64,000 nt of DNA from an uncultured Spirochaetota bacterium (GTDB taxonomy: Bacteria; Spirochaetota; Spirochaetia; SZUA-6; Fen-1364): the NCBI GenBank assembly GCA_963734545.1, contig CAVTHO010000004.1:288001-352000 (forward strand), given 5' to 3'. Of the stretch, positions 2,110 to 49,819 are shown piece by piece (within the stretch, counting starts at the first letter, position 1; every line of letters begins with the position of its first letter). The position numbers and the translations under genes are program-made. The notes under the pieces are model-generated. The model saw nothing but the letters and a program-made list of their open reading frames with translations. It ran no database searches and was not told the DNA's origin.

Positions 2110-3072
2110 CTACGGTATCAGCACGATCTTGCCGAACGCGCCGGGCTCCATCACCTTGCGGTGAGCCTCGGCGGCACTGGCCAGCGGCAGCTCTGCTCCC
2201 ACCACGGGCCGCAGCGTCCCGTTTTCCAGCCCGGCCACGATGGCGGCATGCGCCGCCGCCACGTCCTCGTCGGAGATGTTCCACAGCAGCATGCCATAGA
2301 CTGCCCCGTCCCTGCCCATCAGCTCCCGTGGATTGATCGTCACCTCCCCGCGATTGCCGATCACCACGACACGGCCGCGCGGTGCCAGCAGCTTCAGGTC
2401 GGCGCCGAGGTTGACGTTGGCCAGCATCTCGAGGATGACATCGACTCCCCTGCCCCCTGTCAGCTCCCTCACCTGGTCCTGGTAGCCCGCCGCGCGGTGG
2501 TCCACCACGTGGTGCGCGCCCTCGCGGAGGGCCAGCTCGCGGCCCCTGTCCGTGCCGGCGGTGCCGATCACGATCATGCCCCGGGCCCGGGCAAGCTGCA
2601 CCGCCGCGACGCCGACCCCGCCGCTCGCGCCATGCACCAGGAGCGTTTCCCCTCCGCGGGCATGCGCCACCTGCTCCAGCGCCCGGTACGCTGTGGCGTA
2701 TGGCACGAACACCCCGGCGCCCTGGGCCCACGAGACCCGCTCGGGAAGCGGCTGGACCTGCGACTCGAGCGCCAGAGCGTATTCCGCGTACGTGCCGCTC
2801 ACCGTGCGGGCCGTGTACACGCGGTCACCCGGCTTTACCCGGCTCACGCCGGGTCCCGTCGTCTCGACCAGCCCGGCGCCGTCGGTGCCCGGCGTGTACG
2901 GAAGCTCGGGCTTGCGCGCATAGCTTCCGCTGCGCACGTACGTGTCCGCCGGATTGACGCCCGCTGCCATGATGCGCACCACGACCTGCCCCGGACCCGG
3001 CTTCGGCAGGGGGAGCTCGCCGAGCTTCAGCACCTCGGGTCCGCCAAACTCCCTGACAACGATGGCTTTCAT
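2110..3072 (-). CDS. qor: NADPH:quinone oxidoreductase (MDR / zeta-crystallin family)
   Basis: FGGPEVL, GVNPADTYVRSG, PYTPGTDGAG, HGASGGVG, C-terminal GKIVL. Confidence 0.9.
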   Translation of the reverse strand: MKAIVVREFGGPEVLKLGELPLPKPGPGQVVVRIMAAGVNPADTYVRSGSYARKPELPYTPGTDGAGLVETTGPGVSRVKPGDRVYTARTVSGTYAEYALALESQVQPLPERVSWAQGAGVFVPYATAYRALEQVAHARGGETLLVHGASGGVGVAAVQLARARGMIVIGTAGTDRGRELALREGAHHVVDHRAAGYQDQVRELTGGRGVDVILEMLANVNLGADLKLLAPRGRVVVIGNRGEVTINPRELMGRDGAVYGMLLWNISDEDVAAAHAAIVAGLENGTLRPVVGAELPLASAAEAHRKVMEPGAFGKIVLIP

Positions 3073-4944
3073 GGTCCCTCCTCGGCGTCAGCCGTCGATT
3101 CAGGCAGCCGGATATCGAATTGGCATCCGGAGCCTTCGAGGTTCCTGACGCTCATGCTCCCTCCGTGCCTCTTCACGATCTGGTAGCAGATCGACAGGCC
3201 GAGCCCGATATTGTCGCCCTTCCCTTTCCGCGTCGAGTAGAAGGGAATGAAAATGTCGTTGAGGTCCGCGTCCCGGATCCCCGGGCCGGAGTCGGTGAAT
3301 GTCACGTGCACGGCGCCCCTGCCCTGCTCGTCCCGCGTCCGGCGGGTCTTGATGCTGATGGTCCCGCCGGCCGGCATGGCCTCGAAGCTGTTCTTCACCA
3401 GGTTGAGGACCACCTGCTTCATCTCGTTCCTGTTGACCGTGGCCAGGAGCGTCTTTTCCGGCGAATCGAACGTGATCGTGATGTGCTTGTAATCCGCGTT
3501 GTGACGGAGGAGGCCCAGGATGTTGCGGATCAGGTCATTGAGGTCGATCTCTTCCCTTTCCACCCTGTCCATGTTCGACAGGGAGAGGAGGTTCTTCACG
3601 ATGCCCGCGATATACGTGATCTCCTCGTGCAGCTCGTCGATCGCCTCGTGCAGCTTCCTGTCATTGAAGGAGAACTTGATATGCGTCAGGTAGTTGTAGA
3701 CGATCTCCAGCGGATTGTTGATCTCGTGCGCGACCCCCGCGGCGAGCAGGCCGAGCGAGGCGAGCTTTTCCGAGAGGATGACCTGTTTCTGCAGCTTGTC
3801 GAACTCGGTGACGTCCTCGATGATGATGATGTTGCCGATGCGCGCTCCTTCATCATAGATGGGGAGGGTCCTGACGTTGTTCACCGTGTCGGTCCCGCCG
3901 ATGACCAGGGGGACGTGGTAGAACGCCCTGCCTTCGTCGGAGAGCAGCGCGTCCCGTATGAGCCCGAGCGTCCCGCTGTTCCGCGCCCCCAGCAGGTCCG
4001 CGAGCGGCTTGTCCGCGAACTGCACGCCTTCCAGCCGGAAGTATTCCCGGCAGCGCTCGTTCACGATCTTGACGTTCTCCTGCGCGTCGCTCACGATGAG
4101 GTTCACCGGGCAGATTGAGCAGGACCGCCTCGTTGAACTTGAGGAACTGGTTGAACTCGCGTTTCAGGTTTCCCGAATCATTGCGCGCGTAGACCTGCGT
4201 ATAGGTGAGCTTGAGCAGGTTCATCCTGTCGATGTGCTCGACGTCGTCCGTCACCAGGATCTCGCCGTTCTTCACGATGCTGACCCGGTCCGCCACCTCG
4301 TAGACGTCGTCGATGCGGTGCGTGATGAAGAGGACGGCCATGCCTTCCTTCTTCATCCCGTCCATCATGCGCAGCACGCGGGCGAGATCTCCCGAGGAAA
4401 GTTTTTCCAGGGCTTCGTCCAGGATCAGCAGTCGCGGTTTCTTCTGCAGGGCGCACAGGATCGAGGTCAGGACCCGGTCGGGAAGGTTGAGGTGGCTCAC
4501 CGTGGCGGACGCATCGAGATTGAATCCGTGGGAGGAGAGGTATTCCTCCGCGTGACGCAGGATGTCCCTCCTGCTCAGCATGCCCCAGCGCTTCATCTTA
4601 CCGTCCAGGAAAAAGATGTTCTCGGCGACGGAGAAATAGTCATTGAGCTGGACCTGCTGGTGCACCATTTCGATGCCCATGCGATGCGCAAGGCTCGTGG
4701 ACAGGGCGGCATATCTCCCGGTGCCGAACTCGATGCATCCCCTCTTGGGCTTCATGTTGCCGCTGATGACCAGCCCGAGAGAGGATTTTCCCGCACCATG
4801 CTCACCCACCACCGCGTGGACCTTGGAGGGAAACAGGGAGAGGTTGACGTCTTTCAGCGCTTCGATCTGGCCGTAGTCCAGCGAGATGTGGGCAAGACGG
4901 AGCAGCTCGCGGGTTTCGCCCCCGACGCTACGCATTGATCCCAT
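3069..4944 (-). CDS. Putative fusion: sugar-ABC ATPase domain + PAS + HisKA/HATPase sensor kinase; apparent frameshift near 4107
   Basis: ORF 3853..4944 has GEHGAGKS, MVHQ, LLILDE, ITHR; ORF 3069..4106 has a PAS-like segment, AGVAHEINNPL, N/G1/F/G2 boxes; removing one base at AATCTGCCCGGTG joins them as ...LLNLP-VNLIVSD... Confidence 0.75.
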
Positions 4945-6260
4945 AGCGCTCCATCTTGTTGTAGAGCGTCTTCCTGCTCATGTTCAGGAGCTGCGCGACC
5001 CGGGACCTGTTGTAGTTCGTGCTCTGGAGGGTCCTCAGGATCAGGTGCTTTTCCATGTCCTCGCGGATGTTGCGGGGGGTCGCGTTCAGCCCGCCGTCCA
5101 GGAAGGCGACAGGGAGGTCCTCCATGCCGATCCGTTCGCCCGCCGACATGGCCACGGAATAGTTGATCGTATTCTTCAGCTCTCTGACGTTCCCCGGCCA
5201 CGAGTGATCGAGGAACCGGGCCAGGACTTCCGGGGCAACGTCCTTCCGTGCGCCGGGGCTGGAATTGTGATACTCCGCGAGAAAATGCTCGACGAGGAGA
5301 GGGATGTCCTCTTTTCTCTCCCGGAGGGGAGGAACGGTGAGCACCGCCGCATTGAGCCTGTAGAAGAGGTCTTCGCGGAACAGGTTCTTCTCTATCAGTG
5401 CCCCGAGGTCCTTGTTCGTGGCGGCGATGAAGCGCACATCCACCCGGATCGTCTCGCTCCCCCCCAGCCTTCTGATCTCGCTGTTCTGGAGGGTCCGGAG
5501 GATCTTTGCCTGGATGCCGAGGGGCATGTCTCCGATCTCGTCGAGGAACAGGGAGCTTCCGTCCGCCTTCTCGAACACGCCCTTGAAGGCGGAATCCGCG
5601 CCGGTGTAGGCGCCCCTCTCGTGCCCGAACAGCTCGTTGTCCAGGAGGGACTCGGGAAAAGCCACGCAGTTGATCTTGATCATCTTCCGGGCGCCGCGCG
5701 CGGAGCTCGCATGGATGTTGTCCGCGATGACCTCCTTGCCGGTGCCGCTCTCGCCGCAGATCAGGACGGGGAGGCTGGTGGCGGCGAGCTTCTCCACCTT
5801 GCGGCAGAGGTCGAACATGCGCGCGTCCTGGGTGACGATCGTCGCGGAGAGCTCCATGCAGCCGGCTGCGAAGCTGGACATTTTCTTCCCGCAGCCGCGA
5901 GCACTCGGACGCGTTCTCCACGGTCTTCAGCAGCTCGTCGAAATCCAGCGGCTTCTTCACGTAGTCGAAAGCCCCCAGCTTGATGGACTGCACGGCCGTG
6001 TCTATGGAGGCGTACGCGGTGATCATGATCACGGGCACCCGGGCGTTGATTGCCAGGAGCCGCTTGAGGATGTCGATGCCGCTCTCCTCCGCCAGCATGA
6101 CGTCGAGAAGAACGACATCGATCCTGTTGTCGGAAAAGACCGTGACCGCCTGCTGCCCGTTGGTCGCGTAGAGCGCCCTGTAGCCGACGTGCTCGAAGTT
6201 CAAGGCCAGGCTCTTGCAGAGCTTCTCTTTATCGTCGATGACCAGGATGCAGCTTTTCAT
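4928..6260 (-). CDS. Sigma-54-dependent response regulator (NtrC/AtoC family: REC-AAA+-Fis HTH); apparent frameshift near 5860
   Basis: REC (LVIDD, LLDVML, GAFDYVKKP) in 4854..6260; GESGTGKE, ELFGHERGAYTGA, LFLDEIGDM, FREDLFYRL, WPGNVREL and HTH in 4928..5881. Confidence 0.9.
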
Positions 6261-6304
6261 CTGTTGATTGTCACCAGGTTACCCAGGGGCCCCTCGCAAT
6301 ATGA

Positions 6305-6382
6305 GTAATTTTTACGCACTCACTATAGGGCCGCTGCTCGCCGGCTGTCAACGATTTTCTTGACAGCAGGGTAATTCCTTAC
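6305..6382. promoter_or_regulatory. Candidate upstream activator sequences for the sigma-54 activator
   Basis: GTAATTTTTAC (6305-6315), CTGTCAA-N8-TTGACAG (6345-6366) and GTAATTCCTTAC (6371-6382), 50-130 bp upstream of the -24/-12 element. Confidence 0.4.
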
Positions 6383-6432
6383 AAGAATGCCACTTGAGAA
6401 AAGGGAATTCCCCTGCCCGGCAGCCATGCGAT

Positions 6433-6448
6433 TGGCATGAGAAATGCT
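6433..6448 (+). promoter_or_regulatory. Sigma-54 (-24/-12) promoter
   Basis: TGGCAT-GAGAA-ATGCT matches TGGCAC-N5-TTGCW with correct GG-N10-GC spacing, 60 bp before the SBP ATG and next to a sigma-54 activator gene. Confidence 0.75.
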
Positions 6449-6508
6449 TCGGAGAGAGGCAAATCTGGAAGTTTTCCAGGGTTCCCATCCGAAGAAGGAG
6501 GAGAGAGC

Positions 6509-7453
6509 ATGAAGAAGCTGCTGTTCATTCTCGTTGCGGCGTCCCTCATATTCACCGCAACATCCGCGACAGCCCAGGCAAAGGGACAGATCAAGATCGC
6601 CATGGTGAATCTGGCGCTCACGAGTCCCTATTTCATCGGCATGTCCCAGGCGGTGAAGCAGGAATGCGATCGCTTCACGAACATCAAGCTCGTCACGACC
6701 GACGCAAAGGGCGACGCGCAGAAGCTGACCTCGGACGTGGAGGACGTCCTGGCACAGAACGTGAACGGTCTCATCATCAGCGCGGCATGGCTGGAGGCGG
6801 CCCCTGAAGCGCTGGACGCCATCAAGAGGGCCGGCGTGCCCGTGGTGCTCGTGGACAGGAAGCTCAAGGGCGGAGACTATACGAGCTGGGTCGGCCCCGA
6901 CAACACGCGCATCGGCATCCAGGACGGCGAGTACATCGTGAAGCGGCTGAACGGCAAGGGCCGGGTCGTGGTCCTGCGGGGCGGGCCCGCGGACAACTCC
7001 ATCGGCCTGGATCGGACCAACGGCATGATTTCCGCGGTCAAGAAGGCGGGCATGGAAGTCGTCATGGCGCCGAACTTCGGCGGCTGGAGCTCGGACGGCG
7101 GGTTCAAGCTGATGGAAGACATGCTGGCCAAGTACAGGAAGATCGACGCGGTCTTCGCGGAGAACGACTCCATGGCGCTGGGCGCGCAGAAAGCTATAGC
7201 CGATGCGGGACGCTCCAAAGAAATGTTCCTGTGCGGCGCCGACGGCGAAAAGGCCGCCCTCGTGGAAATCAGCAAGAAATCGAACTTCGCCGCCACCGGG
7301 CTCAACAGCTCGGATCAGATCGGCCGCGCGGGGTTCACCCGGCTCATGTCGCTCCTGGCGGGCGCGCAGTCCGAGAAGGACACGATCCTGCCCTCGCCCC
7401 TCATCACCATAGACAACGTCGCTCGGTTCCTCATTCCCGAGAGCGTATTCTAA
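6509..7453 (+). CDS. Monosaccharide ABC transporter substrate-binding protein (RbsB-like)
   Basis: Signal peptide MKKLLFILVAASLIFTATSATAQA; VPVVLVDR, VGPDN, VFAENDSMALGA; RBS GAAGGAGG. Confidence 0.9.
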   Translation: MKKLLFILVAASLIFTATSATAQAKGQIKIAMVNLALTSPYFIGMSQAVKQECDRFTNIKLVTTDAKGDAQKLTSDVEDVLAQNVNGLIISAAWLEAAPEALDAIKRAGVPVVLVDRKLKGGDYTSWVGPDNTRIGIQDGEYIVKRLNGKGRVVVLRGGPADNSIGLDRTNGMISAVKKAGMEVVMAPNFGGWSSDGGFKLMEDMLAKYRKIDAVFAENDSMALGAQKAIADAGRSKEMFLCGADGEKAALVEISKKSNFAATGLNSSDQIGRAGFTRLMSLLAGAQSEKDTILPSPLITIDNVARFLIPESVF

Positions 7454-7460
7454 ACCATCG

Positions 7461-7494
7461 CCATGACCTCCCTTCGGGGAGGTCATGGTCTTTT
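7461..7494 (+). terminator. Stem-loop after the SBP gene (leaky terminator or mRNA stabiliser)
   Basis: CCATGACCTCCC-TTCG-GGGAGGTCATGG followed by TCTTTT. Confidence 0.7.
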
Positions 7495-7508
7495 CAGGGA
7501 GATCGTCC

Positions 7509-8972
7509 ATGCAAATGCTCATCGACGGCAGGTGGGTCGACGCCCGCGACGGAAAGACCCGCGCGATTCGAAATCCGGGGAACGGCGAGGTCATCGATAC
7601 CGTCCCCATGGCCGGGCTCCAGGACGTGGACGCTGCGCTGGAAGCCGCGGCGGCAGGCAGCGCGCGGATGCGCGCCACCCCCGCCCACGCGCGATCATCC
7701 ATCCTCGCGCGCGCGGCCCTGCTCATAGCCGCGAGGAAAGAGGAGCTCGCGACGCTCCTGGCCCGGGAGAACGGCAAGCCGATCCGGCAGACGAGGGACG
7801 AGATCGAGGTCACCTCCCGGATTTTCCGCGGCTTCGCCGAGGAGGCCAGGCGGATATTCGGCCGGACCGTGCCCATGGACGCGGTGCCGGGGCAGGAGCG
7901 GCATTTCGCCATGACCATCAGGCAGCCTTTGGGAGTCGTGGCCGCGATCGTTCCGTTCAACTACCCGGCGGAGCTCTATGCGCACAAGGCCGCCCCCGCG
8001 CTCGCCGCGGGCAATGCGGTGATTGCCAAGCCGCCCAGTGACTGCCCCCTCACGATGCTCCGCATCGCCGCGATACTGGAAGAGGCCGGCCTCCCGCGCG
8101 CGGCCCATCAGATGCTCACGGGGCCGGGGCAGCTCGTCGGCGAGCGCCTGGCCATGAGCCCCCTCGTGCGCCTCGTCTCGGTGACGGGAAGCACGGCAGT
8201 GGGAAGGAGGCTCGCGCAGCTTGGCGCGGAGAACCTTCAAAAGATCCACCTGGAGCTCGGCGGCAACGATTCGGTCATCATCTGCGCGGACGCCGACATA
8301 GAGAAGGCGGCCGAGGCCGTGGTCCTGGGCCGGCTGGCGCGCGGGAACGGTCAGATCTGCTGCGCGGTCAAGCGCGTGTTTGTCGACGCCCGGGTCATGG
8401 ACCTGTTTGCCCGGCGCCTGGCGGAAAAGGCCGCGGCCCTCAAGGTGGGGGATCAGCTTGCCGAGGACACCGACGTGGGACCGCTCATCACGGAGGAGGC
8501 GGCCCGGAGAGTGGAGGAGGCGGTTGCCGAAGCGGTGACGGCGGGCGCTAAAATCCTGTTCGGCGGCGGGCGGCGCGGTTCGTTCATGATGCCGACAGTT
8601 CTCACAGACGTGCCGGTGCAGACGCACCTGTTCAAGGACGAGACCTTCGGTCCCGTGGCGCCCCTGGTCGCCTTTTCCACGGAGGATGAAGCGGTGCGCA
8701 TGGCCAATGACAGCCCCTTCGGGCTGCAGGCAGCGGTCTTCACCAACGATATCACGCGGGCAATGAACATGGCATACCGGCTGGAGGTGGGCGGCGTGAT
8801 CGTGAACTGGTCCTCCGCGCTCAGGGCGGAGAACCTCCCCTTCGGGGGAACCAAGCTGAGCGGGTACGGCCGCGAGGGTCTGCACGACACGCTCCTCGAA
8901 ATGACGGAACAGAAGGTGATCCTGTTCCACAACGCGCTCTCGGTGTACGATGCCGGGCAGGCCGGTGCATGA
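7509..8972 (+). CDS. NAD(P)-dependent aldehyde dehydrogenase
   Basis: IVPFNYP, TGSTAVG, LELGGND, catalytic Cys in GQICCAVKR, ETFGPV, PFGGTKLSGYGREG. Confidence 0.92.
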   Translation: MQMLIDGRWVDARDGKTRAIRNPGNGEVIDTVPMAGLQDVDAALEAAAAGSARMRATPAHARSSILARAALLIAARKEELATLLARENGKPIRQTRDEIEVTSRIFRGFAEEARRIFGRTVPMDAVPGQERHFAMTIRQPLGVVAAIVPFNYPAELYAHKAAPALAAGNAVIAKPPSDCPLTMLRIAAILEEAGLPRAAHQMLTGPGQLVGERLAMSPLVRLVSVTGSTAVGRRLAQLGAENLQKIHLELGGNDSVIICADADIEKAAEAVVLGRLARGNGQICCAVKRVFVDARVMDLFARRLAEKAAALKVGDQLAEDTDVGPLITEEAARRVEEAVAEAVTAGAKILFGGGRRGSFMMPTVLTDVPVQTHLFKDETFGPVAPLVAFSTEDEAVRMANDSPFGLQAAVFTNDITRAMNMAYRLEVGGVIVNWSSALRAENLPFGGTKLSGYGREGLHDTLLEMTEQKVILFHNALSVYDAGQAGA

Positions 8973-10505
8973 GCAATGAGAGCTACCTCCACATGGAGGC
9001 CATCTACAAGAAGTTCGGAGGCACGATTGCGCTGAAGAACGTCTCCCTGTCCGCCGCGCTCGGTGAGGTCCACGCCGTGGTGGGGGAGAACGGAGCCGGC
9101 AAGTCCACGCTCATGAACATACTCTCCGGGGCCGTCACGCCGGACTCGGGGACAATCGCAATAGACGGCAGGACGGTCGTGCTGGGCACGCCGCACGAGG
9201 CGAACCGCATGGGCATTCGCGCGGTGCACCAGGAGTTCAGCCTGGTACGCCACCTGACCATTGCGGAGAACATCCTCATGGGCAAGATGCCCACCCGCGG
9301 CGCGGGACGCGTGTGGGTGGACTGGGCCGGCACCAACCGGCGCGCCCGCTCGATCCTGGAGGACCTCGGGTTTCCGCACCTCGACGTGCGCACGCGCGTC
9401 TCCCACCTGAGCGTGTCCCACCAGCAGATCGTGGAGATTGCCAAGGCCCTGGCGGAGAAACCCCGCATCCTCATCCTGGACGAACCCTCGGCGGTCCTCT
9501 CCAAGGATGAGCTGGCGCTGCTGTTCTCCCTCATCAGGAGGCTCGCGGCGGAGAACACGCTCGTCATCTACATCTCCCACAGGCTGGAGGAGGTCTTCGA
9601 GATAGCCGACCGCATCACCGTTCTCAGGGACGGCGAGGTGGTGGGCACCGTACCGCCGGGTCGAGGTGGACCAGAACGCCCTGATCCGCATGATGGTCGG
9701 CCGTTCCGTGGAAGAGATCTACCCGGCGCGCGCCGCGCGGTCCGCGGAGGAGATCCTGTCCGTGCGGGGGCTCGGCCGCGCGGGGGAGTTCCACGACGTT
9801 TCCTTTTCCCTGCACAGGGGAGAGGTCGTCGGGGTGTTCGGCCTCGTGGGGAGCGGAAGGACCGCCGTGGCCCGCAGCATCTTCGGAGCCGAGCCGCCGA
9901 CATCCGGCAGCATCTTTCTGGAGGGCAGGGAGGTGCGCGTGAAATCCCCGCAGGACGCGGTGAACGCGGGGATCTCCTTTGTGACGGAGGACAGGAAGCG
10001 GGACGGGCTGATCATGAGCTGCACGCTGCGTGACAACATCAGCCTTGCCACTCTGCGCCAGATGAGCCACGGATTGATCCTGGACCGGCGCCGGCAGGAC
10101 AGGATGGTGCAGGGAAAGGTGAACGACCTTGCCATCCGCCCGTCGGACATCGGACAGAAGGCCAGGACACTGAGCGGGGGCAACCAGCAGAAGGTGGTCA
10201 TTGCGAAATGGCTGCTCTCCCGCACCCGGGTCCTGCTTCTGGACGAGCCTACCCGGGGCGTGGACATCGGAGCGAAGGTCGAGATCTATCACATCATCAA
10301 TGGTCTCGTGGAGGCGGGGATCGGCGTCCTGCTCATCTCGTCGGAAATGTCGGAGGTACGCGGCATGAGCGACAGGATCATCGTCATGAGGGAGGGACGG
10401 CTCGTGGGGAATCTGACAAGGGCGGAAGCGGATGAAGAGACGCTGCTCCAGTACGCCGCGGGGGTGACAGGAGCAGCCGGTGCGCACATAAGGGGAACAC
10501 CATGA
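8969..10505 (+). CDS. Sugar ABC transporter ATP-binding protein (RbsA-like, two NBDs); apparent frameshift near 9660
   Basis: GENGAGKST, ILDEPS, YISHRL in 8969..10033; TEDRKRDGL, LSGGNQQKV, LLDEPTRGVDIGAK in 9666..10505. Confidence 0.9.
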
Positions 10506-11455
10506 AAGCAACGCTCCCGCTCGCGGAGAAGGCGCGGCTGTTCGTGAGGCTGCGATGGTCCGACTTCATCTTCATGGGGATATTCGTCGTCCTGATCCTG
10601 ATCAGCTCCCTCATATCCGAAACTTTTTTCACTTCCCGAAACCTCATCAACATCTCCCGGCAGATCGTGACCAACGGTCTCATCAGCCTCGGAATGCTGA
10701 TCGTGATCCTCACCGGCGGCGTCGACCTTTCCGTAGGATCCATCGTGGCAATCTGCGGCATCATGGCCACCGGATTGCAGAAGCAGATGCCCACCCCCGT
10801 GGCAATCCTCGTCGCACTTGCCGTGGGAATCACCGTCGGAATGGCCAATGGCTTTTTCATCGCGCGCTTCAAGCTGCAGCCCTTCATCGTCACCCTCGCC
10901 ACCATGGGCATCATCCGCGGCGCAACCTATGTCTTCTCGGAGACCCCGCAATCGCCGGTTGATCCGCTGTTCCGTTCGCTTCTGGGGGGTGGATTCATTG
11001 GACCCATTCCGAGGGCGGCAATCATCATGCTCGTCTTCTTCGTCATTGTGTGGTTTTTTCTCAACAGGACGATCCCCGGGCGCGCCGTCGTGGCCATCGG
11101 CGGCAATGAGGAAGCGGTCCGCCTTGCCGGCATCAACGTCAAGGGGCACCTCCTCATGGCGTACATGGTCTGCGGTCTGTTTGCCGCCATCGCGGGCGTC
11201 CTCCTGGCATCCCGGCTCGGCATCGCGCAACCGAGCTTCGGGGCCGGCTTCGAGATGGACGCGCTTGCCGCCGTGGTCATCGGGGGCGGAATCATGGGCG
11301 GAGGCGGCGGCGGGGCCATCGGGACATTATGGGGGGTGCTCATCCTGGGGGTCATCGACAACCTGTTGAATCAATACAACGTCCAGTCGTACTATCAGCA
11401 GATCATCAAGGGTCTCATCATCCTCGCCGCGGTGCTCTCGCGGAGGAAAAAATGA
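10502..11455 (+). CDS. Sugar ABC transporter permease (RbsC-like)
   Basis: ILTGGVDLSVGS, PFIVTLAT, AIGGNEEAVRLAGI, AAVVIGG; multiple TM segments. Confidence 0.92.
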   Translation: MKATLPLAEKARLFVRLRWSDFIFMGIFVVLILISSLISETFFTSRNLINISRQIVTNGLISLGMLIVILTGGVDLSVGSIVAICGIMATGLQKQMPTPVAILVALAVGITVGMANGFFIARFKLQPFIVTLATMGIIRGATYVFSETPQSPVDPLFRSLLGGGFIGPIPRAAIIMLVFFVIVWFFLNRTIPGRAVVAIGGNEEAVRLAGINVKGHLLMAYMVCGLFAAIAGVLLASRLGIAQPSFGAGFEMDALAAVVIGGGIMGGGGGGAIGTLWGVLILGVIDNLLNQYNVQSYYQQIIKGLIILAAVLSRRKK

Positions 11456-11489
11456 GACCAGGGTATTCGCGCACGGGGAGGATATCGCA

Positions 11490-11966
11490 ATGAGCGGCAC
11501 GGACAAACCGGATTTCGAAAAGCGGCTGCGGGACCTGGGATTCGCCGTCCCCGCGCTTCCTCCGCCCATGGGCCTCTACGTTCCCGCGGTGAGGACGGGT
11601 TCCCTGGTTTTTTGTTCGGGGCAGGGACCCTCCGTCGACGGAGTGTTGAAGTACATCGGCAAGGTCGGGGACACGCTGACGCTGGAGGACGGCTTCCAGG
11701 CCGCGCGCATCGCCGCTTTGAACTGCCTGGCGGAGGTCCGGTCGGTGATCGGCTCCCTGAACAAAATACGCCGCATCGTGCACCTGAGAGGATTCGTGAA
11801 CAGCGCCCCTGATTTCTTCGACCAGCCCAAGGTCGTGAACGGCGCCTCCCAGCTCGTGCTGGACGTATTCGGAGAGGCGGGCAGGCATTCGCGCGCCGCC
11901 CTGGGCACGTCCAACCTCCCCTCGAATATCGCCGTCGAGCTCGAGATGGTCGTCGAGGTGGAGTGA
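11490..11966 (+). CDS. RidA/YjgF family protein
   Basis: YVPAVRTGSLVFCSGQGP, VNGASQL, GRHSRAALG, AVELEMVVE. Confidence 0.88.
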   Translation: MSGTDKPDFEKRLRDLGFAVPALPPPMGLYVPAVRTGSLVFCSGQGPSVDGVLKYIGKVGDTLTLEDGFQAARIAALNCLAEVRSVIGSLNKIRRIVHLRGFVNSAPDFFDQPKVVNGASQLVLDVFGEAGRHSRAALGTSNLPSNIAVELEMVVEVE

Positions 11967-25834: not shown

Positions 25835-28048
25835 ATGACAGCGATTTCCGTACCGACAATAGTCATGGCCGGCGTCTCCCTGTACGTCGGCCTCTATCAC
25901 CTGTTGATCCACGCGCGAAGGAAGGGCCATCCGGAGGATCTCACTTTTGCGCTCCTCTGCCTGGCGACATGCATTTACGAAGTGTTGTGCACGGGGCTGT
26001 ACAATGCCACTTCCCCGGCGGACGGAGGACGGTGGCAGCGGCTGCAGTTCATCTCCCTGACGCTGTTCACCACCGCATTCCTCTGGTTCGTAGCCGATTA
26101 CACGCGCCGCCGGAAGGGCATCGTGATATACGCATTCACGGCATACTACGTGGGCGCTCTCATCGTCCAGGCCGTGGATCGGAGCGCCTTCACGTGGATC
26201 TACGCGCTCCCTTCCGTCAAGACAATCCATCTCCCGTTCGGGATCGACTTCACCTACTATGAGGTCACGTTGGGGATCTTCAGCACCATCCAGGGGCTGA
26301 TCGGCCTCGCAGCCAGCGTGTACATCTTCTGGTGCGGCGTGCGCTTTTTCCGGAGCGGCAGCCGCCGGGAAGCCGTCCCCTTGCTTGTCGCATTTGCGGT
26401 CATGCTCGTCGCGGCAATCAACGACACGATAGTGAGCAACGGGCTGTTGGAGTTCGTTTACCTCATCGAGTACGGCTATATCGCAATGATTCTCCTGATG
26501 GCGTTCTCGCTCTCCCGCACCGTCGTCGATGCCGCGATTGCGCGCGAGGCACTGCGGCAGGCGGAGCTGGTGATCGACAACAGCCCGGCCATATTGTTCC
26601 GGTGGCAGAACAAGGAGAGCTGGCCCGTCGAATACGTCTCAGAGAATATCCGGCAGCTCGGGTACGCGCCCGGGGAGCTCCTGAGCGGGGAGATCCCGTA
26701 CTCCTCGCTCGTCCATCCGGACGACCTCGAACGGGTGATGACGGAAGTAAAGACGTATTCAGCGGGCACGCAGGAGAGTTTTCCCCAGGAATACCGGATT
26801 CTCACCCGGGACGGCAGAGTGCGCTCCATGGATGACCGCACAACGATCATACGGAACGACGCGGGGATCATCACCCACTACCAGGGCATCATCATCGACA
26901 TCACGGATCGGCGCAGGATCGAAGCGGAGCTCCTGGAAAGCGAGGAGAAGTTCCGTTCCATCGTGGAGAATGCGCTGATCGCCATCTTCACTGTGAATGA
27001 TTCATACCAGTTCATCTACTGCAATGACGAGCTCTGCCGGATCCTCGGGCGTACCCGGGAGTGGATCCTCGGCCGCGATTACCGGGAGGTCCTGGCACCG
27101 GGAAGCCTTCAACTGGTGTCGGACCGCTATATCATGCGTCAGCAAGGCCAGTCTCCACCCCCGCGCTACGAGGTCGACGTGGTACGCAGCGATGGTGAGT
27201 ACCGGCACCTGGAGATGCACGTGGCAGTGGTAAAGGATGCCGCGGGAAGGCCGCGGACCATGGGCCAGCTGGTCGACATCACGGACCGCACGCGGGCGGC
27301 GGAGGAGATCCGCCGGCTCAATGCCGAGCTGGAGCAGCGGGTCCGTGAGAGGACCGCCGAGCTGGAAGTCGCGGTGAAGGAGCTGGAAGCATTCACCTAT
27401 TCGGTGTCCCACGACCTTCGCGCGCCGCTTCGCGCCATTGGAGGCTACGCGGGTATCCTTCTTCAGGATCATGCCGAACGGCTCTCCGCCGAAGCGTCAC
27501 GCTTCCTCTCCACGATCCAGGCCACGGCCCGTCAGATGGGGCAGCTCATCGATGACCTGCTGAGCTTTTCGCGGCTGAACAAGCAGCCGCTCGTCCTGCA
27601 GACCTGCGCAATGGAGGACATTGTGCGCGATGTCCTGGCCACTTTCGGTGAGGAGAAGGCGGGACGCACCATCGAGGTGACCGTGGAACCCCTTCCCCCC
27701 TGCCAGGGGGACCCGGGGCTGCTGAAGCAGGTCTGGCTCAACCTCCTCTCGAACGCCCTGAAATACACACGAAGATCCGCCAAGGCGACAATCGTGGTCG
27801 GCCACGAAGAACACGGCGCCGACGTGATCTATTTCGTCCGGGACAACGGGGTGGGATTCGACATGAAGTACGCGGACAAGCTCTTCGGCGTGTTCCAGAG
27901 GCTTCACCGTGACGACGAGTTCGAGGGAACGGGAATCGGCCTGGCCATCGTGAAGCGGATCGTGAACCGCCACGGGGGACAGGTATGGACGGAATCGGTC
28001 CCCGGGCAGGGGGCCGCGTTCTATTTCACGCTGTCAGGCTCCCACTGA
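25835..28048 (+). CDS. Membrane sensor histidine kinase (7TM-like, 2x PAS/PAC, HisKA, HATPase)
   Basis: About seven TM segments, VHPDD, DITDR twice, FTYSVSHDLRAPL, NLLSNA, DNGVGF, GIGLAIV. Confidence 0.92.
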   Translation: MTAISVPTIVMAGVSLYVGLYHLLIHARRKGHPEDLTFALLCLATCIYEVLCTGLYNATSPADGGRWQRLQFISLTLFTTAFLWFVADYTRRRKGIVIYAFTAYYVGALIVQAVDRSAFTWIYALPSVKTIHLPFGIDFTYYEVTLGIFSTIQGLIGLAASVYIFWCGVRFFRSGSRREAVPLLVAFAVMLVAAINDTIVSNGLLEFVYLIEYGYIAMILLMAFSLSRTVVDAAIAREALRQAELVIDNSPAILFRWQNKESWPVEYVSENIRQLGYAPGELLSGEIPYSSLVHPDDLERVMTEVKTYSAGTQESFPQEYRILTRDGRVRSMDDRTTIIRNDAGIITHYQGIIIDITDRRRIEAELLESEEKFRSIVENALIAIFTVNDSYQFIYCNDELCRILGRTREWILGRDYREVLAPGSLQLVSDRYIMRQQGQSPPPRYEVDVVRSDGEYRHLEMHVAVVKDAAGRPRTMGQLVDITDRTRAAEEIRRLNAELEQRVRERTAELEVAVKELEAFTYSVSHDLRAPLRAIGGYAGILLQDHAERLSAEASRFLSTIQATARQMGQLIDDLLSFSRLNKQPLVLQTCAMEDIVRDVLATFGEEKAGRTIEVTVEPLPPCQGDPGLLKQVWLNLLSNALKYTRRSAKATIVVGHEEHGADVIYFVRDNGVGFDMKYADKLFGVFQRLHRDDEFEGTGIGLAIVKRIVNRHGGQVWTESVPGQGAAFYFTLSGSH

Positions 28049-29055
28049 ACGATCTCTGTGGCCATCCTCAGCAGTCCCACCGGCACGGGAAGGCCCAGCT
28101 CGTTCATCCTGCCGGGGTTGACCCAGAGCTCGTATTCCGGAGAGATCACCGGCAGGTCCCCGGCGGGGATCCCTGAAAGGATCTTTTTTGCCAGGAGCGA
28201 GGCTTGGAACCCGGCCTTGCGGACATCCGCTGCGTTGCCGAAGATGGCACCCTGCTCGACCGTGAAGCGCTGGCTCCCCGCCACGGGGACGCGCATCATC
28301 GAGGCATAGTCCCTTATCGCCCTCCATCCAATCGGCGAAGTATTGAACATGTCGGGCACGATCATCACCGCATCCACCCGGTCAGCAGGGCGGCGCGCAC
28401 GCTCCTGCATGGCCTTTGCCATTGCGTCAATCGTTGTGACGGGAACCTCCACGAGCGTGATGCCAGCCGCCCGAGCGTGCTCGCGCAGCATGTCGAGCAC
28501 CGGGGGAATGATGGGATACTCCTGGTCGTAGCAGATGAGAAGGCGCTTGACGCCGGGCACAGCCTCCTGAAGCAGCTCGAACCGCTTGGCAATAAGGTCG
28601 ACTCCCGGGTAACGCACACCGGTGATGGCGTCCCCAGGGTGTCGGACACTTTTTACGAGGCCGGAGCCTTCGAGACCGGCGTACGCAAACAGGACAGGGG
28701 TGTTCTTTCCGGCTGCCGCGGCTTTTGCCGCCAGGGCCGGCTCCGTGGGCACGGCGAAGAGAAGGTCCAGCTTCTGATCGATCAGCTCGTTCGCGCCGCG
28801 CCGGATTGCCTCGGGATCAGCGCCAAGAAGACGCGTGAGGTAGGTCACGTTCTTCCCCTCTGCGTATCCCTGTTTCTCCATGCCCTCTTTGAACCCCTCC
28901 ACGGCGCCAACAAAGGAATCACCGCCGCAGATGAGGCCGATTCGGTAGGTGCGGGGGGGATGACCGCATCCCGCGACCGCAATGAGGCAACAGAATCCCA
29001 GCGCGGCCAGAAAGAACCAGCCCGTCCGCGCTTTCGGCGACGAGCCTACTGCCAT
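28021..29055 (-). CDS. Orphan ABC-type substrate-binding lipoprotein (ABC_sub_bind-like)
   Basis: Lipobox-like VAGC; GFKEGM...GY.EGKNV, G.V.S...PG..ITGV, KILSG.PAGDLPV. Confidence 0.8.
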   Translation of the reverse strand: MAVGSSPKARTGWFFLAALGFCCLIAVAGCGHPPRTYRIGLICGGDSFVGAVEGFKEGMEKQGYAEGKNVTYLTRLLGADPEAIRRGANELIDQKLDLLFAVPTEPALAAKAAAAGKNTPVLFAYAGLEGSGLVKSVRHPGDAITGVRYPGVDLIAKRFELLQEAVPGVKRLLICYDQEYPIIPPVLDMLREHARAAGITLVEVPVTTIDAMAKAMQERARRPADRVDAVMIVPDMFNTSPIGWRAIRDYASMMRVPVAGSQRFTVEQGAIFGNAADVRKAGFQASLLAKKILSGIPAGDLPVISPEYELWVNPGRMNELGLPVPVGLLRMATEIVQWEPDSVK

Positions 29056-29165
29056 GACAGACAAACTATACAAGGCGGCAGCCCCGAACACAAGCTCATC
29101 CAGCGCCGCGCGCAATCTTGCCGAGGACAGGGACCCGGACTATAATCAGGCGGGAAATCCACTTC

Positions 29166-31016
29166 ATGCGCAGTGCAGGCAACACGCCCGTGCGTAACTC
29201 CGTGCGCGGTCCGGTCAGAACGAAGAATCCGCGCAGCGTCACTGTGACGATGGCCCTCGCTTTCTTCACGTTGAGCGCCATCGCCCTTCTCATCTCAGGG
29301 ACATTGCAGGTCATCTGGAGCGTGCGTGCCCAGGAAGATATCGTGCTCAGAGGGCAGCAGCTCATTGCCCAGGACGCGGCGAAGACCGTGAGCGCGTTTG
29401 TCGAGGAGAAGCTGGGGGCCATGGAGACGAGCGTGCGCGTGGCCGACGTCGCCGCGGCGGATCCGGCCTCTCGAACTCTGCTCGTGGAGAGTCTCCTCGG
29501 CATGCAGCCTTCCTTCCGGCAGCTCGTGCTCCTGGACCTGGAAGGCAGGATCCTCGCGTGGACGTCCCGGCTCTCGCAGCAGGCATCGCGCAATTTTCAG
29601 GGCCGGGTGGCGCGAGAAGGGTTCACGTTGCTGCACAAGGGAAGCCCTTACTACAGCCCCGTGTACGTTGACCCCGTCTCCAGCGAGCCGCTCATGACAC
29701 TGGCGGTTTCCGTGAGGGATCCGTTCGGCGATCTGCGCGGGCTGCTCGTGGCGGAGATGAATCTCAAGTTCATGTGGGACATCGTCAACAGCCTGAATCT
29801 GGGCCCCACCGGGCAGGCCTACGTGGTCGACCACGAGGGAATGCTCATCGCGTTCAACGACATGGCGCGCGTTCTCAACGGGGAGAATCTACGCGGGCTC
29901 GAGCCCGTCAGCGCGTTCGTCTCTGCGCAGCCCCCTGTACAGCTGCCCGGCGCGCAGCTGTACAGGGGCATTACCGGCACCCGTGTCATCGGCACCTATG
30001 TTCCGCTGGTCACTCCGGACTGGGCGGTGGTGACAGAAATTTCCGCCGCGCACGCGTTTCATGACGTCTTTGTCGCGTCTGCACTGTCGGCAGGGCTCAC
30101 GCTTTTCCTCGCCCTTGCGTCCGGCCTGGTCGGCATGTCCCTGGCACGTCACCTGACCGTTCCGATTACGAGGCTCGCGGACACCGCCACACGGATCGCG
30201 GCCGGTGATATCACGCAGGAGGCGACAGTCTCGGGCCCGAAAGAGATTGCCGCTCTGGCGGCCGCGTTCAACAGCATGACCAAGCAGCTCCGCCAGACCT
30301 TTGAAAACCTCGAATTGCGCGTCAGGAAGCGCACCGCCCAGCTCGAGGCCTCCAACAACGAGCTGGAAGCATTCTCCTATTCCGTCTCTCATGACCTTCG
30401 CGCGCCCCTGCGCGCCATCGGCGGCTACTCGAGAATCATGGTGGAGCAGTACGGGAAGACAATGCCCGAGGAGGCGGCCCGCTACCTGGGCCACATCGCC
30501 GAGAATACCCGTCACATGGGCATGCTGATAGATGGCCTGCTCGATCTCTCCCGGTCGGGACGCATGCCAATGAGACGGGAGACGGTCCCCTCGGCCGGCC
30601 TCGTGGCCGAGGTCGTGGAAAGGCTCGGCCCGGAACGCACCGGCCGGAACGTGCAGGTGTCCGTGGGTGAGCTCCCGGATTGCCAGGGCGACCCGACCCT
30701 GCTGCGGCAGGTGTGGGAGAACCTCATTTCCAACGCCCTGAAATTCTCCCGCTGGCGCACGGAGGCGATCATCCACATCGGGTGGGAGCGGCAGGACGGA
30801 GAGGGTGTATACTTTGTTCGGGACAATGGCGTGGGCTTCGATATGAAGTACGCGGGCAGGCTGTTCGGCGTGTTCCAGCGCCTGCACAGCCCTGAGCAAT
30901 TCGAGGGAACGGGTGTCGGGCTGGCAATCGTGCAGCAGATCATCCGCCGGCACGGAGGCCGGATCTGGGCGGAGGCGGCCGTCGATGCCGGCGCCGCTTT
31001 TTACTTTACGCTGTGA
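29166..31016 (+). CDS. Cache-HAMP sensor histidine kinase (start uncertain, alternative 29249)
   Basis: TM-Cache (YYSPVY, AYVVDHEG.LIA, WAVV)-TM-HAMP; FSYSVSHDLRAPL; G boxes. Confidence 0.9.
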   Translation: MRSAGNTPVRNSVRGPVRTKNPRSVTVTMALAFFTLSAIALLISGTLQVIWSVRAQEDIVLRGQQLIAQDAAKTVSAFVEEKLGAMETSVRVADVAAADPASRTLLVESLLGMQPSFRQLVLLDLEGRILAWTSRLSQQASRNFQGRVAREGFTLLHKGSPYYSPVYVDPVSSEPLMTLAVSVRDPFGDLRGLLVAEMNLKFMWDIVNSLNLGPTGQAYVVDHEGMLIAFNDMARVLNGENLRGLEPVSAFVSAQPPVQLPGAQLYRGITGTRVIGTYVPLVTPDWAVVTEISAAHAFHDVFVASALSAGLTLFLALASGLVGMSLARHLTVPITRLADTATRIAAGDITQEATVSGPKEIAALAAAFNSMTKQLRQTFENLELRVRKRTAQLEASNNELEAFSYSVSHDLRAPLRAIGGYSRIMVEQYGKTMPEEAARYLGHIAENTRHMGMLIDGLLDLSRSGRMPMRRETVPSAGLVAEVVERLGPERTGRNVQVSVGELPDCQGDPTLLRQVWENLISNALKFSRWRTEAIIHIGWERQDGEGVYFVRDNGVGFDMKYAGRLFGVFQRLHSPEQFEGTGVGLAIVQQIIRRHGGRIWAEAAVDAGAAFYFTL

Positions 31017-31036
31017 GCGACACGGAGGAACCGACA

Positions 31037-31513
31037 ATGTCACCAAGCACCGCGGAAATCGTCCTGGTGGAAGACAATGCCCACGACGCCGAGCTCACGC
31101 TCTACACTCTCTCGAAGCGCAATTTCGCGCAGAATGTCGAGGTCCTCCGCGACGGTGCCGAGGCCCTGGATTACTTCTTCTGCACCGGCCGTTTCGCCGC
31201 CCGCAGGCTCCAGGAGCTGCCCCGGCTCGTGCTTCTCGATCTGAAGCTGCCCAAGGTGGACGGCATCGAGGTGCTGCGCCGCGTCAAGGCGGACCGGCGG
31301 CTGTGCGCCACGCCGGTGGTCATGCTCACGTCCTCCCGTGAAGAGCGCGACGTGGCAGAGAGCTACCGCCTGGGTGCGAACAGCTACGTCGTCAAACCCG
31401 TCGATTTCGACCAGTTCGCGGGGGCGCTGCAGGCAATCGGCGCCTACTGGCTGGAGCTGAACGAGCGGGCCAGGCTGGAGGGTGACACCGAATCGGAAGA
31501 AGTCCAGCGATGA
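31037..31513 (+). CDS. Single-domain response regulator (Rcp1-like)
   Basis: LVEDN..D, LLDLKLPKVDG, VMLTSS, GANSYVVKP. Confidence 0.92.
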   Translation: MSPSTAEIVLVEDNAHDAELTLYTLSKRNFAQNVEVLRDGAEALDYFFCTGRFAARRLQELPRLVLLDLKLPKVDGIEVLRRVKADRRLCATPVVMLTSSREERDVAESYRLGANSYVVKPVDFDQFAGALQAIGAYWLELNERARLEGDTESEEVQR

Positions 31514-36683: not shown

Positions 36684-36886
36684 CGGAACGGCCCGAGATG
36701 GCCGAGGCGTCCATCTCGCCGCCCGCCTGACATTGAAATCCGCGCGAACCAGGGGTACATTTCGCGGCTCCGCGACACTGGTGTACGTAAATCCAATCCA
36801 GGCCCGGCCTCCTCGCCGTATGAAACATCGCACGACGCGAAAAAGAAAAGAAGCGTCGGCAGGGTGTTCAACGAGGAGGCAAGAGT

Positions 36887-37804
36887 ATGAAAAGGTTTCA
36901 TGGATCGTTGGGATTGGTGCTGGTGGTCCTGGTCGCGTTCCTGCTCTCCTGCGCGCAGGGCAATCCCCCCGGGGTGAACGGCTTCAGCAAAGGCGTCATC
37001 ACGGCCAAGGGAAGCATCTTCGTGAACGGCGTGGAGTTCGATCTCTCCGGGGCTTCGATCATGATCAATGGCACACCGGGAACAGAGGCGGACCTCCGGG
37101 TCGGGATGCAGGTCGAGGTGAAGGGCAAGATCGATGACGCATCGTCGACGGGCAGTGCGGCGGAAGTGCATTTTGACGGCAGCCTCAAGGGTCCGATCGA
37201 CGCCCCGATTGTCGCTCCGAATCTCATCGTCCTCGGGCAGACCGTGATCACGGATTCCAACACGGTATTCGAATCGCTCCCGCTGGGGCTCGGCGACCTG
37301 GCCCAGGGCGACGTCGTGGAAGTGGCCGGCATGGCAGACGACAGCGGACACATCCTGGCAACGCACATTGAAAAGACAGGGTCCCCCACGCTTGAAATCA
37401 GCGGAGTTGTCAGCGGTCCGGCGGCAGGAACCTTCGTTCTGACTCCGTTGAACGGCGGGGTCGCGCTGACCGTGAACTACACGGGCGCGCTGGACGCCGG
37501 CATCACGACAGGGACCACCGTCGAGGTGAAGTTCGTGCTGGCGAATTGGACCTCGGGAACAAAGACCATCGCGACGACTGCCGCGAGCATCGAGGCGAAG
37601 ATGGAGCTCGAGCCGGCAGACGGGGACAGGGCTGAGGTGCAGGGCTTCGTGACGGGGTTGGCTGGTGCCACGTTCACCGTGGAGGGGATCTCCGTGAACG
37701 CGGGCAGCCTCTCCCTCGCCGGAATCGCCAATGGCACGAAAGTCGAAGCGGAGGGTTCCTTCACGAGCGGCGTTCTCTACGCAGAGAAAATCCAGATAAA
37801 ATAG
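36887..37804 (+). CDS. DUF5666-type repeat lipoprotein
   Basis: Lipobox LLSC; GSIFVNGVEF, repeated L.VG..VEV.G motifs, final G..VEAEG....GVL.A.KI. Confidence 0.75.
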   Translation: MKRFHGSLGLVLVVLVAFLLSCAQGNPPGVNGFSKGVITAKGSIFVNGVEFDLSGASIMINGTPGTEADLRVGMQVEVKGKIDDASSTGSAAEVHFDGSLKGPIDAPIVAPNLIVLGQTVITDSNTVFESLPLGLGDLAQGDVVEVAGMADDSGHILATHIEKTGSPTLEISGVVSGPAAGTFVLTPLNGGVALTVNYTGALDAGITTGTTVEVKFVLANWTSGTKTIATTAASIEAKMELEPADGDRAEVQGFVTGLAGATFTVEGISVNAGSLSLAGIANGTKVEAEGSFTSGVLYAEKIQIK

Positions 37805-37818
37805 GGGCCATCGGAAAT

Positions 37819-37848
37819 GAAAGGCACCCCGGAAACGGGGTGCCTTTC
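37819..37848. terminator. Intrinsic terminator hairpin between convergent genes
   Basis: GAAAGGCACCCCG-GAAA-CGGGGTGCCTTTC. Confidence 0.75.
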
Positions 37849-37901
37849 CGCATGCCGCCTTCCGGGGAGGCCGCCTTTCAACAGGAAAAGGAGCGCACCG
37901 T

Positions 37902-49743: not shown

Positions 49744-49819
49744 CAAGTACTCCAAAGTATAGCCACAGAAGGCCTTGCACACCATGGACAGGTTTGAAAA
49801 CCTTACGTATGTTTGAGCC

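Follow-up and report, generated by a model that had tools for sequence, protein, structure and literature searches.

The locus described here lies in a 64,000-nucleotide stretch of DNA (the window) from an uncultured Spirochaetota bacterium (SZUA-6; Fen-1364), which covers positions 288,001-352,000 of the forward strand of contig CAVTHO010000004.1 in assembly GCA_963734545.1, and it centers on a sensor histidine kinase whose N-terminal part is a nucleotide-binding domain (NBD) of the ATP-binding cassette (ABC) type. On the minus strand, at 2110-6260, the order of transcription is a sigma-54-dependent response regulator, the NBD-kinase and a quinone oxidoreductase; the end of the regulator gene overlaps the start of the kinase gene, and the quinone oxidoreductase gene, which overlaps the kinase stop by 4 bp, is probably cotranscribed with the kinase. 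The plus strand carries a CUT2 sugar importer operon coding for a binding protein, an aldehyde dehydrogenase, an ATPase, a permease and a RidA-like protein (Table 1). An earlier account of this DNA, made from its letters alone (the sequence-only reading), had given the same gene order, with which the Pfam matches agree, and the same overlap between the kinase and NtrC-type activator genes. Once a single extra base at 5859 is set aside, the regulator displays receiver (REC), Sigma54_activat and HTH_8 domains, all above their Pfam cutoffs, as befits an activator of the NtrC/AtoC type; it also matches the AtoC profile, below the equivalog cutoffs, and its loop reads GAYTGA, the consensus loop of sigma-54 activators being GAFTGA.

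Table 1. Features of the locus (window positions unless stated otherwise), parts of the AlphaFold2 (AF2) model of the sensor, and variant modules at other loci; NBD, nucleotide-binding domain; pLDDT, predicted local distance difference test score.
Feature	Position	Strand	Evidence or remark
Quinone oxidoreductase (PIG3 type)	2110-3072	-	Pfam, NCBIfam; collinear in the G014 locus
Sensor kinase gene, NBD-linker-PAS-HisKA-HATPase, ~621-624 residues	3069-4944	-	Pfam, intact 95% orthologue, DNA alignment, contigs
DHp (HisKA, H-box AHEINNPL) and HATPase_c, AtoS-like	3099-3809	-	Pfam, AF2, profile and fold matches
Fixed-length linker (residues 249-259), PAS cap helix and PAS (to ~377)	3813-4200	-	AF2, junction alignment, PAS_4
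Inserted base splitting the kinase frame	4108		DNA alignment, contigs of other runs
Sensor ABC nucleotide-binding domain, residues ~14-248	4201-4905	-	Pfam, conservation, AF2 pLDDT ~90
REC - sigma-54 AAA+ (GAYTGA loop) - HTH_8 regulator, AtoC/NtrC type; extra base 5859	4928-6260	-	Pfam, alignment
Candidate activator-binding sites: dyad TGAGTAA-TTT-TTACGCA (6302-6318) and half-site GTTACCCA (6278-6285)	6278-6318		
Sigma-54 type -24/-12 promoter-like site TGGCATGAGAAATGCT	6433-6448	+	motif search, conserved intergenic alignment
Conserved palindrome CTGGAAGTTTTCCAG between promoter and ribosome-binding site	6465-6479	+	11 orthologues
Periplasmic sugar-binding protein, Peripla_BP_4, RbsB-like (below equivalog cutoff)	6509-7453	+	Pfam, NCBIfam
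Aldehyde dehydrogenase	7485-8972	+	Pfam, NCBIfam
CUT2 transport ATPase, two fused NBDs; extra base 9653	8969-10505	+	Pfam, alignment, contigs
RbsC-type permease (BPD_transp_2), 317 residues; proposed docking partner	10502-11455	+	Pfam, NCBIfam
RidA/YjgF-like protein, last gene of the operon	11490-11966	+	Pfam
AF2 part: NBD	residues 15-248		pLDDT ~90
AF2 part: linker	residues 249-259		low confidence, pLDDT <50
AF2 part: cap helix and PAS	residues 260-377		
AF2 part: DHp	residues 379-456		
AF2 part: catalytic domain	residues 464-615		
Variant modules	L043:3382-8612; L045:12339-17333; L047:7726-9722		

As assembled, the kinase is distributed over two minus-strand open reading frames (ORFs), one at 3853-4944 that matches ABC_tran and one at 3069-4106 that matches PAS_4, HisKA and HATPase_c. 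The closest orthologue, at 95% identity, reads through the kinase uninterrupted over 624 residues, and DNA alignment with it reveals one extra base at window position 4108 (GGG versus GG), in line with the sequence-only reading, which had removed one base near 4107 to obtain a single fused kinase of about 620 residues. That reading overlooked two further one-base insertions, at 5859 in the activator gene and at 9653 in the transport ATPase gene; what it had called a complete two-NBD ATPase does have two NBDs, and it is split by the extra base in this assembly. Relative to the collinear G014 locus of the same genus (90.6% identity over 10.5 kb, the alignment starting at 2110), all three splits correspond to single bases inserted in the window, and the G014 regulator has its own, different frameshift. 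We also compared, over 3000-10600, contigs from four public wetland metagenome runs, which may include the sample of origin and are not independent populations, yet show that the intact form exists: the extra base is absent from three of three covering runs at 4108, from the one covering run at 5859 and from both at 9653. Since the extra bases are missing from the contigs of other runs, and since 12 orthologues in the genus (66-95% identity) have stop-free frames of 610-642 residues, these comparisons indicate that the frameshift at 4108 is an assembly error, as are those at 5859 and 9653, and that in the population a single uninterrupted gene encodes the kinase. Near the locus, a DeoC/LacD aldolase is likewise found in two overlapping plus-strand ORFs (803-1438 and 1410-1964), probably through another one-base assembly error.

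The sensor matches ABC_tran with 66 bits (cutoff 25), HisKA with 32.9 bits (cutoff 26.9) and HATPase_c with 85.3 bits (cutoff 26.4), and thus combines an ABC NBD with a HisKA-class kinase. It lacks a transmembrane (TM) segment, as the sequence-only reading had maintained, with a best 19-residue Kyte-Doolittle mean of 1.37 versus 2.52 in the permease, and the motifs named there (GEHGAGKS, LLILDE, ITHR and the degenerate LNLPDR) are all present in the translation. The NBD features an A-loop Tyr, a Walker A motif (GEHGAGKSS), the Q-loop Gln, a Walker B motif with the catalytic Glu (LLILDE) and an H-loop (ITHR); the signature and D-loop are lost, with LNL[SP]DR in the place of the signature (Leu alone conserved) and LEKLS for the PT..LD stretch. 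Over 67 sequences, down to 27% identity, K53 of Walker A, D176 and E177 of Walker B and the H-box AHEINNPL are invariant, and Y24 (A-loop), Q96 (Q-loop), Asn109 (AEN motif) and H209 (H-loop) are conserved at 90% or above. An AF2 model from a 67-sequence alignment (mean pLDDT 77.5, predicted template-modeling score 0.43) resolves into the parts listed in Table 1. In Foldseek searches the C-terminal part resembles soluble PAS/LOV kinases and the N-terminal part ABC NBDs, with no solved chain spanning both halves among the matches listed, and the PAS-DHp-catalytic portion matches the AtoS profile (616 positions) over 259-613 only. The NBD-to-PAS junction shows almost no length variation in 45 segments, 36 aligned 90-residue segments giving 91 columns, which argues for a structurally constrained connection despite the low confidence of the model at this point.

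The association of this sensor with its neighbors extends well beyond the window. Six-frame translations of 45 genome loci (41 of the same order and four named metagenome-assembled genome (MAG) records; L085, a duplicate of L035, was dropped from the counts) were scanned with hidden Markov models built from the window proteins and their relatives, so that binding proteins of other subfamilies may be under-counted; a full-length-alignment scan keyed on the kinase H-box returned mostly ordinary kinases, with only L053-L056, L085 and L099 as full-length relatives. The PAS-kinase part follows the NBD in all 46 sensors of the genome loci, a figure that partly reflects their selection by fused architecture; regulator and transporter were unselected. 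A same-strand REC/sigma-54 regulator precedes the sensor in 46 of 46 cases, 8-78 bp away, and within 8 kb a BPD_transp_2 permease accompanies 38 sensors, a binding protein 39, an ATPase N-terminal half (N-half) 39 and a C-terminal half (C-half) 35, the eight sensors without a permease all being cut by contig ends. Metagenome contigs retrieved through the junction motif, whose alignment samples solely the paralogue group nearest the window, contributed 79 loci with 75 sensors, 71 of them non-duplicate. Here the PAS-kinase fusion is present in 70 of 70, and a regulator was detected in 57 of 59 by a strict filter, the remaining two showing a low-scoring terminal piece; among the 24 sensors with at least 7 kb of upstream and 2.5 kb of downstream DNA, permease, binding protein and two-NBD ATPase are found in 24, 23 and 23, respectively. 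Homologues thus carry the fusion rather than two separate genes, and every sensor with enough flanking DNA is linked to a sigma-54 activator and an RbsC-type permease, both as expected from the sequence-only reading. Taken together, these loci indicate that the kinase-activator pair always stands beside a CUT2 (RbsABC-type) importer.

Ahead of the binding-protein gene, where the sequence-only reading had placed a -24/-12 promoter, TGGCATGAGAAATGCT is the sole match in the 64 kb to TGGCAY-N5-TTGCW at no more than one mismatch, about 60 bp upstream of the start codon (ATG 6509, ribosome-binding site GGAGGAG). As some three matches are expected by chance, the motif count is not significant alone; the position is. 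The dyad and the half-site GTTACCCA, about 125 bp upstream of the -24/-12 site, are candidate activator-binding sites. Kept in 11 orthologous intergenic regions are the -24/-12 site, the upstream dyad and half-site and the leader palindrome CTGGAAGTTTTCCAG, which takes the symmetric form CCGGAAGTTTTCCGG in other orthologues and could serve a second regulator as operator or form a hairpin in the leader (5'-untranslated region). We scanned the intergenic DNA before the first transporter gene of the genome loci with GG and GC fixed and at most two mismatches elsewhere, and found a -24/-12 site in 38 of 45 loci, against a background of 154 sites in 724 kb (both strands). The seven remaining loci comprise four without any transporter gene, one that breaks off at the site itself, one whose perfect site is not followed by a recognized gene and one lacking a site. 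The source genome encodes RpoN (rpoN). With the -24/-12 sites and the conserved dyad, this makes control of the transporter operon by the regulator a well-supported reading of the sequence data.

Where the sensor NBD comes from can be read from its relatives. In NCBIfam searches it matches best the N-terminal halves of YtfR, AraG, XylG and RbsA, covering profile positions 1-241 of the roughly 500 in CUT2 ATPase models, far below the equivalog cutoffs, and no NCBIfam model reaches its own cutoff for the sensor. CUT2 transport ATPases consist of two fused NBDs (about 500 residues), and the sensor, with its single N-half-like NBD, is not one of them; its earlier description as a single RbsA-like NBD stands, the specific match to the N-terminal half of CUT2 ATPases having gone unnoticed. 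The motifs of 46 sensor NBDs were set against those of 43 N-halves and 43 C-halves from neighboring transport ATPases. The N-halves have consensus Walker A, Q-loop and H-loop motifs and a degenerate signature. Walker A (Lys to Arg), Q-loop and H-loop are degenerate in the C-halves, which alone have a consensus signature, LSGGNQQK. The sensor NBD resembles the N-halves in its motifs, with further loss of the signature helix, of the Pro-Thr that follows Walker B and of the D-loop. Among 48 columns conserved in the N-halves, the sensors keep 27 and lose 21, the lost ones including signature-helix columns, the Pro after Walker B and the columns after Walker B. A FastTree phylogeny with the C-halves as root groups the sensor NBDs in a single clade (support 94), with the N-halves next to it (support 83). 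These data indicate that the N-terminal, catalytic half of CUT2 ATPases is the source of the sensor NBD and, since the sensor NBDs form a single clade, that it was captured once in this sample rather than donated repeatedly by neighboring ATPases.

The fusion defines a sizeable family. A database search with the intact orthologue gave 4315 matches at E<=1e-10 among 8000 scored candidates, and ABC_tran and HisKA occur together in 119 of the 120 best (48-100% identity), the exception being a 487-residue fragment. Source names include Spirochaetia MAGs, Candidatus Vecturithrix/KSB3, Desulfomarina and Rectinema, and members are currently misannotated, bearing automatic names such as 'ATP-binding protein', 'AtoS' and 'sporulation kinase A'. 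A 90-position profile of the NBD-to-PAS junction, searched against 1.84 billion cluster representatives (50% identity clusters), yielded 1100 matches at E<=0.001 and 242 clusters at E<=1e-10; among the best 150, 141 cover the entire junction, typically at residues ~205-305 of proteins of ~600-646 residues, and the remaining nine are long multi-PAS proteins in which the PAS part alone is matched. By these profile matches, the NBD-kinase fusion represents a family of about 240 clusters, mostly from uncultured Spirochaetota and also from KSB3. The source genome itself carries a second regulator/NBD-kinase module on another contig (G000:C5:208873-211989), between two CUT2 transporters, whose NBD is likewise frameshifted in this assembly. 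The ESM Atlas has clusters of ~826-852 residues with ABC_tran, GAF_2 and HisKA, most frequent in Actinomycetota (feature score 0.83); they are no more than a lead, and may represent an independent NBD-kinase fusion.

We consider the chances evenly balanced that the locus is a two-component system controlling the neighboring CUT2 importer in which the NBD of the soluble kinase docks on the permease and thereby switches the kinase. In ABC importers, the Q-loop and the AEN motif that follows it face the membrane subunits. The sensors keep the Q-loop Gln and AEN and lose the motifs of NBD-NBD contact, and we infer, as the sequence-only reading had done, that the NBD would dock on the permease in the place of the transport ATPase. 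The Foldseek alignments with the MetN and MalK chains, in which regulatory domains sit beneath the NBDs, extend over about 400 columns, so that a C-terminal extension in this position appears compatible with docking, and the two NBDs of a kinase dimer would match a permease dimer in number. For a predicted complex of one NBD and two permease copies, the ipSAE score was 0.48 (0.51, 0.45 and 0.48 in the individual runs) versus 0.15 for the best control, a result classed as weak support: the ipSAE mark is reached by 116 of 157 solved complexes and two of 215 mismatched pairs, and at values of 0.60 or less by just 18 of the solved complexes and both mismatched pairs. At least 85% of contacts agree between the runs, partner pLDDT is at least 74, and no solved sequence homologue of the permease was found at 1e-5.

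Gene arrangements at other loci also speak, indirectly, for docking. At L029 and L032, the kinase gene is abutted at its 3' end by an additional permease gene that has neither an ATPase nor a binding-protein gene with it; in both loci no paralogue is closer to the operon's own permease (70% identity in L029, 48% in L032), implying two independent local duplications. Over the genome and metagenome samples, 89 sensors have 1.4 kb or more of DNA downstream, and six of these are accompanied by such an orphan, ATPase-less permease. The variant modules L043, L045 and L047 are ordered as a divergent regulator, binding protein 2, permease 2, a -24/-12 site, a single-NBD ATPase, permease 1 and binding protein 1; the two binding proteins are unrelated, the two permeases are 25-27% identical, the ATPase is a canonical single-NBD CUT2 protein, and binding protein 2 and permease 2 lie outside the sigma-54 unit, with no NBD gene of their own.

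In the mechanism that we propose, the two NBDs of a kinase dimer would dock on the coupling helices of the permease dimer, usually the seat of the transport ATPase halves. Docking of the sugar-loaded binding protein would shift the conformation of the permease and bring about an ATP-dependent closure or opening of the two NBDs, and the fixed linker would relay the state of the NBDs to the PAS and DHp domains, switching autophosphorylation. The phosphorylated activator would then bind the upstream dyad and open the sigma-54 promoter, with induction of the binding-protein, aldehyde dehydrogenase, ATPase, permease and RidA-like genes as the outcome; in some lineages, a separate ATPase-less permease, or a permease and a binding protein, may be the dedicated receptor. 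We view it as possible rather than probable that the full version of this model holds, where the soluble kinase dimer replaces the ATPase on the permease, the binding protein and permease serve as a transmembrane receptor whose ABC cycle carries information instead of substrate, and the duplicated ATPase-less permease, alone or with a binding protein, is a dedicated nontransporting receptor in some lineages.

Several observations weigh against docking on the permease. The score of the predicted complex may reflect mere likeness, the general arrangement of NBDs and permeases being known: any NBD may be placed on any ABC permease by resemblance to solved importers. At L161, the orphan permease gene closes a sugar-catabolic operon, and its product could be no more than a second subunit of a transporter. 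The window module has one permease and a complete ATPase, an abundant competitor that the sensor would have to contend with, and the genome holds about 58 CUT2 ATPases, which leaves the sensor's choice of its own permease unexplained. The N-half of its own neighbor is the one most similar to the sensor NBD in just six of 25 modules. Distance matrices compared between paralogue groups show co-divergence of the sensor NBD with its PAS-kinase part (r=0.86) and with the regulator (0.81), and none with the permease (r=0.13) or with either half of the ATPase (-0.06 and -0.20), a comparison in which permease identities of about 30% between groups mean that saturated divergence may hide a signal. Finally, linker residues 249-259 have an AF2 pLDDT below 50, and the PAS domain could be the real ligand sensor.

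This last point leads to a model that we regard as unlikely, where the NBD never contacts the permease and functions in ATP-dependent dimerization or as an energy-charge switch, the PAS domain binds the imported sugar or a metabolite, and the operon is merely a regulatory target. An AtoS-like kinase part with the fold of soluble PAS/LOV kinases would suit such a sensor, as would the co-divergence pattern and the low confidence in the linker, and the loss of signature and D-loop makes a canonical transport-type cycle unlikely; left unexplained are an input domain that is always a CUT2 N-half NBD and always beside a CUT2 transporter, the retention of the membrane-facing Q-loop Gln and AEN, and the ATPase-less permease genes beside some sensors, while an energy sensor would need no paralogue for each transporter. 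We deem it improbable that the sensor reads the transport ATPase instead of the permease, its NBD pairing with the ATPase (for example, with the C-half signature) or being displaced by it in a form of flux sensing like that of BceAB-BceS or MalK-MalT. The two would be complementary on paper, the sensor NBD having the catalytic side (Walker A/B and H-loop) and no signature, and the C-half having LSGGNQQK with degenerate Walker A, Q-loop and H-loop; against such pairing, the C-half is covalently joined to its own N-half in the transport ATPase, no free-standing C-half gene was seen in any scanned locus, and the L043 clade has a canonical single-NBD ATPase with its own signature. An artefactual fusion or a decaying locus, with separate genes or pseudogenes, is very improbable: three one-base frameshifts within 6 kb of this assembly, the split DeoC gene nearby (803-1964) and the separate regulator frameshift in the nearest orthologous assembly would fit decay, but all three extra bases are missing from other runs' contigs wherever these were covered, an intact fusion is present in the 12 orthologues and in more than 100 database proteins, the frameshifts differ from assembly to assembly as sequencing errors do, and frequent indel errors would fit a genome that is 89% 'complete' in 10 contigs.

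Elsewhere in the window, at 28024-33540, an ABC_sub_bind binding protein is divergent from a dCache-HAMP kinase, a stand-alone REC protein and a REC-GAF-PAS kinase, and may form another binding-protein-linked signaling cluster. Very large minus-strand ORFs at 36362-49923 (555, 1180, 756, 445 and 1886 residues) have no Pfam match at 1e-5. A 634-residue ORF at 53263-55164 (+) combines 4Fe-4S ferredoxin motifs, Fe_hyd_lg_C ([FeFe]-hydrogenase large subunit) and a methyl-accepting chemotaxis protein signaling domain, and looks like a hydrogenase-like chemoreceptor.

If docking on the permease is correct, a kinase with its own NBD would be a hard-wired, portable plug of a two-component system into any CUT2 importer, and would provide a clean system for following how docking of the binding protein is signaled across ABC membrane domains to the NBDs, phosphorylation replacing transport as the read-out. 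The compact module of regulator, sensor, promoter, binding protein and permease could also be rebuilt as a sugar biosensor.

To our knowledge, sensing of importer substrates is established for few ABC systems, all of which operate through separate proteins. In the Pst-PhoU-PhoR and MalK-MalT systems, the importer NBD passes the transport state to a regulator, the receiver in Pst being the PAS domain of PhoR. There, the components are separate (PstB, PhoU and PhoR; MalK and MalT), whereas here an additional NBD is covalently attached to the PAS-kinase and the transporter keeps its own ATPase. With the CUT2 importers (RbsABC, XylFGH, AraFGH, YtfQRT), the system shares an adjoining CUT2 operon and an NBD that is sister to their N-halves; their ATPases have two fused NBDs, unlike the sensor, which has one NBD without the signature, D-loop and DEPT proline and with a PAS-kinase tail. 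AtoS-AtoC offers the likeness of its PAS-DHp-catalytic portion to that of the sensor, the part ahead of the PAS-kinase being an NBD here.

No description of a fusion of an ABC NBD to a kinase was found in searches of the openly searchable full-text literature, subscription-only papers lying outside this scope, in keeping with the sequence-only reading, which knew of no experimental description. Two candidate precedents were set aside: in PMC2853384, ABC_tran and HisKA appear merely in a domain count table, and the text of PMC6978683 mentions neither a fusion nor an NBD. In Bce modules, according to two reports (PMC3023708; bioRxiv 10.1101/2020.02.28.969956), an ABC transporter senses for a histidine kinase that governs the transporter's own expression. 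BceAB-BceRS of Firmicutes is thus alike in coupling an ABC transporter to the kinase that controls its expression, but it involves a separate intramembrane kinase that contacts the permease of an exporter-type resistance transporter, in place of a soluble NBD-fused kinase, a sugar importer and a sigma-54 activator. The present locus is not a Bce-type module: the kinase has no TM segment, versus two TM helices in Bce kinases, and the permease is a 317-residue BPD_transp_2 protein, versus BceB with its large extracellular domain. In CbrA, CrbS and RpuS (PMC9100948, PMC5715377 and PMC7096432), the input of the histidine kinase is a fused SLC5 transporter module. In these SLC5/STAC kinases, characterized by an N-terminal SLC5 symporter domain and a STAC domain, the membrane transport domain itself is fused, whereas the sensor described here, whose only Pfam domains are ABC_tran, PAS_4, HisKA and HATPase_c, bears the cytoplasmic energizing domain alone and no membrane segment. 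Transporters that act as co-sensors are already known; none of those named here carries a covalent ABC NBD on its kinase.

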